Source of the DNA: Botryllus schlosseri
Taxonomy: Eukaryota
DNA: 64,000 nt
Direction of reading: 5' to 3'
Assembly: GCA_051294905.1 (NCBI GenBank)
Contig: CM119371.1
Coordinates: 38,938,001-39,002,000 of the forward strand
Made by a program: the position numbers and the translations under genes. Positions 27,420 to 28,182 of the stretch are shown here, piece after piece (positions within the stretch are counted from its first letter, which is position 1; every line of letters starts with the position of its first letter). Under the pieces are notes generated by a model. That model did no database searches. It was not told the origin of the DNA and was given only the letters and a program-made list of their open reading frames with translations.

Positions 27420-28182
27420 TATATATCCCCACGACACGCAAAGACGTTCTTCCTGCACTGGAACAAAGTAATGTAGTTCATGAATATAAGTGCCACCATG
27501 ATTGTGGCTACGTGAGAAAAACGAAACAACGTAGGCTGGACCGCATAAAGCAGCATGTCCTAGATAGAATATTAGAACCAATGGCGTGTGAGCAAATGCT
27601 GCAGACAATGGCTTTCGTTGAGAATGCTGCCCAAATTTTGAAATATTTTAAATCTTTTCAATTATATTTACTGGAAATCTTGTGGTGTTGGGTAAAAAAA
27701 AAAGAAAGGTCATCACCTCACATTTTGGCGCCCCTAGTGCCACTGATTAGAACACGCTCTTCACGCTCGGTGAAAGGTTCACCCTTGACTCATCCCCTGA
27801 AGCTTGATTCAAAACAGGCAAAGGCCATTGCCAGACATTTGTTGGATGATCCTGCGTACGCGAAATATGATCGGTATGACAGATTCAGTGTGGTCAGGAG
27901 AGGCCGTTCACACTTTCATTTGTGTGCCTGGGAGTCGACTTTTATCAAAAAACGGCAGCCAAGTCTGTGCCTACATGGGAGTTTGTATATTGAGCTTAAA
28001 CGCTTTCTTCGCCCCGATTATTCGGAATTTCATGCCGGTGACGTCATATTTTGTGATGCAATTGTTGATATACAATGCTCTTTCCAAATCTCGACTAGTT
28101 GCTGACGATTACCCCTGACGAGCGTCAGCCGAAAATGTTCGGGTTCATTTCAATATGATTATAATATTCAATTTTATATTAA
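27420..28182 (+). mobile_element. Penelope-like retroelement 3' fragment (GIY-YIG endonuclease remnant plus terminal repeat)
   Basis: DVLPALEQSNVVHEYKC..CGYVRKTKQR..DRIKQHV and AIARHLL...FSVV..GRSHFHL..WESTFIKKRQPSLC match the PLE GIY-YIG domain layout. Confidence 0.88.
28101..28144 (+). ncRNA. Minimal type I hammerhead ribozyme in Penelope 3' end
   Basis: ACCC-CUGACGA-G(CGUCAGC)C-GAAA-AUGU-UC^GGGU; core intact. Confidence 0.75.

Follow-up and report, generated by a model that had tools for sequence, protein, structure and literature searches.

A fossil hammerhead-like motif with a pseudoknot on a one-pair helix II in a Penelope/Poseidon-type element of Botryllus schlosseri, probably slow and dimer-dependent

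The question raised by this locus is whether the 44-nt motif at 28101-28144 of the window (the whole stretch of 64,000 nucleotides of Botryllus schlosseri DNA that was analyzed) corresponds to a hammerhead in which a pseudoknot takes the place of helix II, and what such a motif would do in its host element. The initial annotation had described a Penelope hammerhead with a seven-base pseudoknot (helix P in this work) and a palindromic stem III, and all of its parts are read in the window at these coordinates on the forward strand (Table 1). The palindrome AAUAUU claimed for stem III holds for the family, and the copy at 28101 departs from it by one change, reading AAUGUU. The predicted cut site of this copy lies after C28140 (position 17). 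Four places in the window fit the core-loop pattern with at most three mismatches, 0.01 being expected, and a descriptor in which the core is followed by G, 7 nt, C, and GAAA and in which a 7/7 complement must lie 5-12 nt upstream finds three sites in the window versus none in 3.84 Mb of shuffled window. No match to the Rfam hammerhead families is obtained at E values up to 10 in the window, in the segment 28040-28200, or in four relative loci; these models expect nested stems II and III and would therefore miss a knotted motif. The 28101 copy is a fossil, with a damaged palindrome and its nearest intact neighbor 24 kb away.

Table 1. Features of the element copy at 28101 and of the other terminal-repeat copies in the window.
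Feature	Position	Strand	Basis
(TA)n run where the element is truncated on its 5' side, likely an AT-rich target	27414..27426	+	Sequence; AT-rich targeting reported in PMC11167929
Decayed C-terminal GIY-YIG endonuclease part of the Penelope/Poseidon-type ORF	27425..28024	+	ORF, protein relatives, tblastn
TGACGTCA palindrome, candidate upstream promoter element	28039..28046	+	Sequence
TATA-like box TATACAAT, -32 from the pseudoknot strand	28069..28076	+	Sequence position
Initiator-like site; predicted transcription start ~28097	28095..28100	+	Inferred from position
Helix P (pseudoknot) 5' strand, GCTGACG	28101..28107	+	Pairing comparison across lineages
Linker from the upstream strand to stem I	28108..28110	+	Sequence
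Stem I 5' strand	28111..28114	+	Sequence and lineage comparison
Hammerhead core CUGANGA (here CTGACGA, 28115-28121) and G10.1 (28122)	28115..28122	+	Sequence, pattern match
7-nt loop II, helix P 3' strand	28123..28129	+	Pairing comparison across lineages
C11.1 (28130), GAAA (28131-28134), stem III palindrome AAUGUU, UC (28139-28140)	28130..28140	+	Sequence
Stem I 3' strand	28141..28144	+	Sequence and lineage comparison
Start codon (28155-28157) and first ORF codons, forming the tail of the element	28155..28183	+	Self-comparison, N-terminus match
Fifth copy, damaged motif 32357-32305, endonuclease remnant 32613-32461	32227..32665	-	Self-comparison, tblastn
Sixth, 3'-half motif fragment directly 5' of the endonuclease remnant of the fifth copy	32665-32614	-	Self-comparison, alignment
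Fourth copy, damaged core; motif 34721-34765	34694..34802	+	Self-comparison, alignment
Second terminal-repeat copy, near-consensus; motif 52122-52165, ATG 52176, family end ~52229	52039..52229	+	Self-comparison, alignment, read depth
Third copy; motif 62104-62147, pseudoknot intact, stem I damaged, GATA replaces GAAA	61955..62166	+	Self-comparison, descriptor

The alignment agrees with the five copies listed in the initial annotation, with cores intact at 28101 and 52122 and damaged at 34721, at 62104, and on the minus strand at 32357-32305, and it adds the fragment at minus 32665-32614. Between minus 32665 and 32227, a terminal-repeat fragment is joined directly to the next copy at its endonuclease end, which gives a partial tandem of the kind typical of Penelope elements. 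Beyond the window, the family is very abundant and 5'-truncated according to contig depth. In a DNA run from the same organism, 94,842 contig pieces map to a 246-base stretch around the 52122 copy, where the depth drops toward the 5' side and stops near 52229; inserted copies thus reach about 68 nt beyond the predicted cut site, with the motif uncut. Position 17 is U in the 52122 copy and C in about 90% of the contig depth of this run, from which 40 of 362 variant rows, unphased, were considered for the variants of the window family. Other repeats share the window: inverted copies of a 900-bp repeat about 70% alike (3047-3968 and 59502-60406) carry TGACTCGAGTCA-type tandem units, and two near-identical tRNA-Leu(TAA) genes (15065-15147 and 25278-25360) accompany a decayed third one with a changed anticodon (18337-18419), all three on the plus strand.

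The host is a C-terminal GIY-YIG Penelope-like element of the Penelope/Poseidon type, the clade being read from the endonuclease region and from an absent finger. By tblastn, the 5'-truncated copy in the window keeps only the endonuclease end. Relatives of its ORF align over the endonuclease region with weak GIY-YIG matches, and a reverse transcriptase domain (RVT_1) lies upstream of the endonuclease in all seven long relative proteins tested. A Pfam search of the window ORF itself gave no match, and the initial protein search for longer forms of it found none. Compared by eye with a published alignment, these relatives show no CxxC linker finger, a feature present in Neptune, Nematis, and Naiad, and on this basis the element was provisionally assigned to the Penelope/Poseidon type. 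The Penelope origin proposed for the motif is thus borne out by the endonuclease-end ORF, the GIY-YIG matches, and the RT upstream in relatives. An unrelated insert of about 170-180 bp (about 27561-27740) with CTAG at both ends splits the endonuclease frame and is possibly a small DNA transposon or a piece of a Helitron. On its upstream side, the Penelope remnant adjoins a second dispersed repeat family, 73-80% alike (26158-27161, 39112-40070, and 52989-53175). The first of these repeats was considered as the RT coding part of the element and set aside, with no tblastn support beyond an E value of 0.005.

For comparison, metagenome contigs were scanned with a 14-protein alignment, an alignment of 40 proteins being too diverse to locate the loci; 213 of 529 candidates were confirmed, and the best 80 of the 213 were analyzed. 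Among these 80 loci, 58 have at least 260 bases past the match, and 45 of the 58 show the same motif layout 131-246 nt downstream (41 from the best-sampled lineage, B, two from the lineage of L057, and one each for L040 and L051). Of the remaining 13, five are lineage B loci with a deletion or break at the motif or spanning it, five, two of which were inspected, break off early within the ORF, and three belong to another lineage (L087, L090, and L091, about 2028-2230), in which no recognizable pseudoknot motif was found. A decayed canonical-looking GAAA-CG-UC end is present in those three loci. Also, an inverted second copy of the motif is seen on the minus strand 0.5-2.1 kb upstream of the ORF end in L044, L047, L052, L067, L081, L086, L098, L102, and others; such an arrangement with a 5'-truncated copy is known for Penelope-like elements. 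Many of the loci represent the same copies sequenced again in similar data sets; five lineages, rather than loci, were therefore taken as the unit of evidence. Protein identity between them is 44-61%, with P0002 standing in for the window family. The protein tree of the relatives is poorly resolved and includes no named reference elements, so monophyly of the motif-bearing lineages is not claimed.

Across the five lineages, helix P pairs at 7/7 positions in every case. The upstream strands are GCTGACG, TCTGACG (two lineages), TGACGCG, and TCCGACG, and each complements its own loop, whereas exchanging upstream strands and loops with L051 leaves only 2-4 of 7 pairs; a 7/7 partner is expected by chance at 0.8-1.8% per site. 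Three independent compensatory events are recognized, namely, G-C to U-A at pair 1, U-A to C-G at pair 3, and in L051 a register shift that keeps the length of seven, its four changed pairs probably reflecting this single 2-nt shift. L051, which is misaligned by two columns in the 11-row alignment, was compared by anchoring. Over these 11 rows, 93.5% of the helix P cells are paired, and the covariation score is 0.305 versus 0.131 (0 of 500 shuffles), a value that relatedness inflates. The predicted duplex energy is -8 to -10.5 kcal/mol across lineages. Moreover, the motif is 0.60-0.91 identical between lineages versus about 0.48 when shuffled, whereas similarity over the 100 nt upstream does not exceed that of shuffled sequence, and this DNA is unalignable. 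The initial annotation would have been refuted by a lack of excess conservation or covariation of the core and pseudoknot, and the 7/7 pairing with compensatory changes in five lineages next to shuffle-like flanks comes out in its favor. Its further argument, that a C/U change at the first loop base keeps pairing, is lost, as this base is U in all the other lineages and the pair never covaries. Pairs 6 and 7 are in fact invariant across lineages, and the invariant G opposite U at the first loop base fits a helix of six pairs and one bridging base, a geometry more likely for a pseudoknot than seven pairs in a 7-nt loop.

The remaining elements are also maintained. Helix II is a single G10.1-C11.1 pair with no extra base after A9, G-C in 11 of 11 rows, and the A15.1-U16.1 pair is present in all six representatives, where stem I has 4-6 bp; in the 11-row alignment, two stem I pairs are altered on both sides. 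The palindrome of stem III changes across lineages from AAUAUU to AAGCUU (35 of 41 relatives) and to AAAGCUUU. The core pair was compared in 46 distinct copies, including an apparent chance match (L108 minus): 33 have U3-G8, nine C3-G8, three U3-A8, and one U3-U8. The change from C3-G8 to U3-A8 occurs in L040 and two more loci; covariation between these two pairs has been published for active hammerhead cores (PMC3088659). The cleavage-site triplet is UUU in 36 of 41 copies of lineage B and UUC in three of the five lineage representatives as well as in the window consensus. As far as comparison shows, the set of base pairs (helix P, stem I, and G10.1-C11.1) and the core are conserved, and the pseudoknot is real. 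Judged in this way, the RNA structure is real and selected, type I hammerhead-like, and a Penelope hammerhead by its context, and it is not a minimal hammerhead (min-HHR) by the published definition of helix II.

The position of the motif in the element bears on its possible role. It sits in the terminal repeat (pseudo-LTR) of the Penelope-type element, between a TATA-like box and the AUG of the element. A strict TATA box lies -30 to -36 from helix P in 21 of 46 distinct copies versus a background of 0.75%, and in most relatives it occurs together with initiator-like and CCAAT sites. The palindrome further upstream (28039..28046) is one that we take to be a CRE-like element. From these positions, we infer that transcription starts 2-4 nt before helix P, in which case the motif would constitute the complete 5' leader wherever the repeat precedes the ORF. 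The frame opened by the ATG at 52176, equivalent to 28155 in the 28101 copy, resembles the N-terminus of the full-length RT-endonuclease P0081, and the same is observed for L040 and L062. The distance from the predicted cut to the AUG is 3 nt in 36 of 46 copies, where the AUG overlaps stem I, and 14 nt in the window family. Thus, the earlier label of a Penelope 3'-end ribozyme stands for the terminal-repeat position and needs to be widened, as the motif is not just at the 3' end but directly precedes the start codon. In L051 (1319-1365), a hairpin resembling the histone 3' stem-loop, with 27.7 bits (below the gathering score), follows right after the motif, inside a short duplication at the start of the ORF.

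Taken together, the comparison suggests that the 28101 copy is probably the fossil of a compact type I Penelope/Poseidon hammerhead in which a 7-base strand pairs with the loop of a one-pair helix II and which likely cuts slowly and only as a dimer. Helix P would form first during transcription, stack on G10.1-C11.1 as a surrogate helix II, and connect helix II, across 0-4 nt, with the distal end of stem I, replacing the contact between loops I and II, the first loop base probably bridging the groove instead of pairing, to give 6 bp and one linker base. Since the monomer has a single stem III pair, cutting after C17 would need a second terminal-repeat copy, which would come from a full-length or tandem transcript, perhaps with the assistance of the protein of the element. 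The predicted dimer duplex is weak, being -0.2 kcal/mol for the window family and +0.8 kcal/mol for the 28101 copy. Cutting would shed a capped 44-nt leader, leaving a 5'-OH end 3-14 nt before the AUG, and it would trim tandem transcripts to unit length, removing them from cap-dependent translation. The inserted copies that extend about 68 nt beyond the cut imply that reverse transcription used templates that had either escaped cutting or been religated at the 3' copy, and this extension matches the internal RT initiation inside the start of the ORF reported in PMC11167929. A more ambitious version of this proposal, which we put forward tentatively and consider somewhat doubtful, is that a whole Penelope/Poseidon subclade uses a 44-nt knotted hammerhead, invisible to Rfam and to the published Penelope descriptors, as its entire 5' leader, that the first bases to be transcribed would supply the missing helix II, and that decapping triggered by dimerization, a few bases ahead of the AUG, would switch the mRNA from message to transposition substrate.

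The most serious alternative is that the fold would be selected as a structured 5' leader or a protein-binding site, acting in translation control or RNP assembly, with self-cleavage vestigial or negligible. The commonest lineage combines the U3-G8 core pair with the UUU triplet, both expected to be slow from established hammerhead biochemistry, and the motif is left uncut in inserted copies. Moreover, three RNA runs, from fragmented or 3' libraries in which dead copies dominate, show no pile-up of molecule ends at the cut site; an active Poseidon element likewise gave no RNA-seq ends at its hammerhead site, and hammerhead mutants of that element still insert in vitro, so that cleavage is dispensable for insertion there (PMC11167929). 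On the other hand, the catalytic positions, the G10.1-C11.1 pair, the NUH triplet, and the exchange of C3-G8 for U3-A8 are kept across lineages despite unalignable flanks, and three of the five representatives and the window consensus carry the UUC triplet. We regard this alternative as unlikely, yet deserving consideration.

Less probable still, by a clear step, is that helix P would act as an off-switch until displaced, or would pair between two molecules or be swapped between the partners of a dimer. A 7-nt loop fully paired on a single base pair would be strained, cis and trans pairing are indistinguishable by covariation, and alternative core-loop hairpins occur in three of the five lineages, the one of the window family (about -5 kcal/mol) competing with helix P. 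Nonetheless, these hairpins are absent or marginal in the other two lineages, and without helix P there would be no helix II to order the core. Indeed, viral type I hammerheads with a bare 1-bp helix II are very slow (PMC13725137), whereas a ribozyme combining a 1-bp stem II with a pseudoknot cleaves fast, its speed depending on the knot (PMC3088659). Finally, accidental complementarity, through local duplication of the CTGACGA core as upstream strand (in the window family, this strand and the next base read like the core) or through chance within a single repeat family, whose copies are not independent, is already largely refuted and very improbable, as the upstream strands of L051 and L057 are unlike the core and still pair 7/7, exchanges with L051 reduce the pairing to 2-4 of 7, and narrow patterns searched without Penelope context give 0/39, 0/52, and 0/9 full motif matches.

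Those three figures correspond to viral contigs (39 and 52 pattern matches) and prokaryote genomes (nine), where no match combined a stem I of at least 4 bp with at least six pseudoknot pairs; given how narrow the patterns are, the zeros do not show absence of the motif there. No relative was recovered when viral and prokaryote contigs were scanned at the protein level.

A comparison with described hammerheads places the preferred reading, a knotted type I hammerhead of Penelope elements, among several known systems. In the Penelope min-HHRs described by Cervera and De la Pena 2014 (PMC4209133), helix II is contiguous and comprises about 3-8 bp, stem III is palindromic, dimers are needed, and cleavage rates are low. 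The window motif shares with them the type I topology, the short stem I, the palindromic stem III implying dimers, the G10.1-C11.1 pair, and the location in the terminal repeat of GIY-YIG Penelope elements with many solitary truncated copies. However, helix II of the published min-HHRs has several pairs, its G10.1 is usually separated from A9 by an additional base, and no tertiary contact is recognized in them, whereas the window motif has a 1-bp helix II, no extra base, and a covarying 7-base pseudoknot. A published precedent is the active metagenome-derived type II hammerhead of Perreault et al. 2011 (PMC3088659, Fig. 4), with a 1-bp stem II and a 6-bp pseudoknot needed for speed, pseudoknots being present in all three hammerhead types according to the same source. 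Both RNAs have a one-pair stem II and a Watson-Crick pseudoknot that aligns stems I and II, but that RNA is of type II, with an open stem II and no link to retrotransposons as far as described, while here the paired strand forms a closed loop that has to return to C11.1, stem III is reduced to a palindrome, and the motif resides in an animal retrotransposon. Therefore, of the unusual compact architecture claimed initially, the pseudoknot in place of helix II is supported, and the degree of novelty is reduced by this precedent.

Also, the type I hammerheads in the 5' UTR of chrysoviruses and fusariviruses (PMC13725137) have a helix II of 0-2 bp and very low rates, and, like the window motif, one-pair forms stand just before start codons (7 nt in one viral case), for which a link to translation has been proposed; unlike it, they possess a long helix III and lack a loop-loop contact, whereas the stem III of the window motif is minimal and its pseudoknot conserved. 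The Poseidon element PAc of Anolis (Frangieh et al. 2024, PMC11167929), from the same element clade, carries a start-codon hammerhead that is protein-assisted, with an internal RT start. In both cases, the hammerhead lies at the pLTR-ORF junction and the tail derives from RT starting inside the ORF, but in PAc a canonical stem II overlaps the start codon and the cut falls 26 nt downstream of it, whereas the cut predicted here falls 3-14 nt upstream of the AUG. The non-circular permutations SGC and CSG (Eckert et al. 2023, PMC10085705) are likewise pseudoknotted, their stems I and II being connected by a short linker. A permutation of that kind (SGC, CSG, or GCS) was considered and discarded, the block order being C-G-S as in ordinary type I (CGS), with only the distal strand of helix II relocated.

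Regarding precedent for the motif itself, PMC8557442 describes canonical motifs in Hydra and some Naiad cores that fit no descriptor. These Naiad cores were considered as possible bearers of the knotted fold, and six 10-base signatures compared with the supplement of that work matched only one canonical Hydra site, a search in which line breaks could hide matches. The available portions of PMC6765202, PMC6155905, and bioRxiv 10.64898/2026.07.22.740005 describe no such variant, and a motif search of the supplementary text of Perreault 2011 matched only a primer table. Each ingredient is published, that is, the 1-bp helix II with a pseudoknot, the palindromic dimer stem III, and the hammerhead at a Penelope start codon, and their combination in Penelope elements was not found in the literature searched. 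Outside that literature, Lunse et al. 2017 reportedly holds very many Penelope hammerheads with short stem III and is said to mention as common a pseudoknot that joins loop II to the sequence preceding stem I; the knotted Penelope form may therefore already be included there.

The 28101 copy, a dead fossil, matters only as a pointer to its family. Penelope hammerheads have been described as devoid of tertiary contacts and their role is debated; the covarying knot shows that some keep such a contact. Because a pseudoknot replacing helix II makes descriptor and Rfam searches miss motifs of this kind, the counts of hammerheads in animal genomes would be underestimates. Moreover, the tight layout of TATA box, ribozyme, and AUG offers a small construct for joint tests of cleavage, of the need for a dimer, and of translation. 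If the reading as a leader switch were true, these motifs would rank with the smallest hammerheads known in nature that have a tertiary contact, and they would provide a testable answer on the role of hammerheads in Penelope elements.
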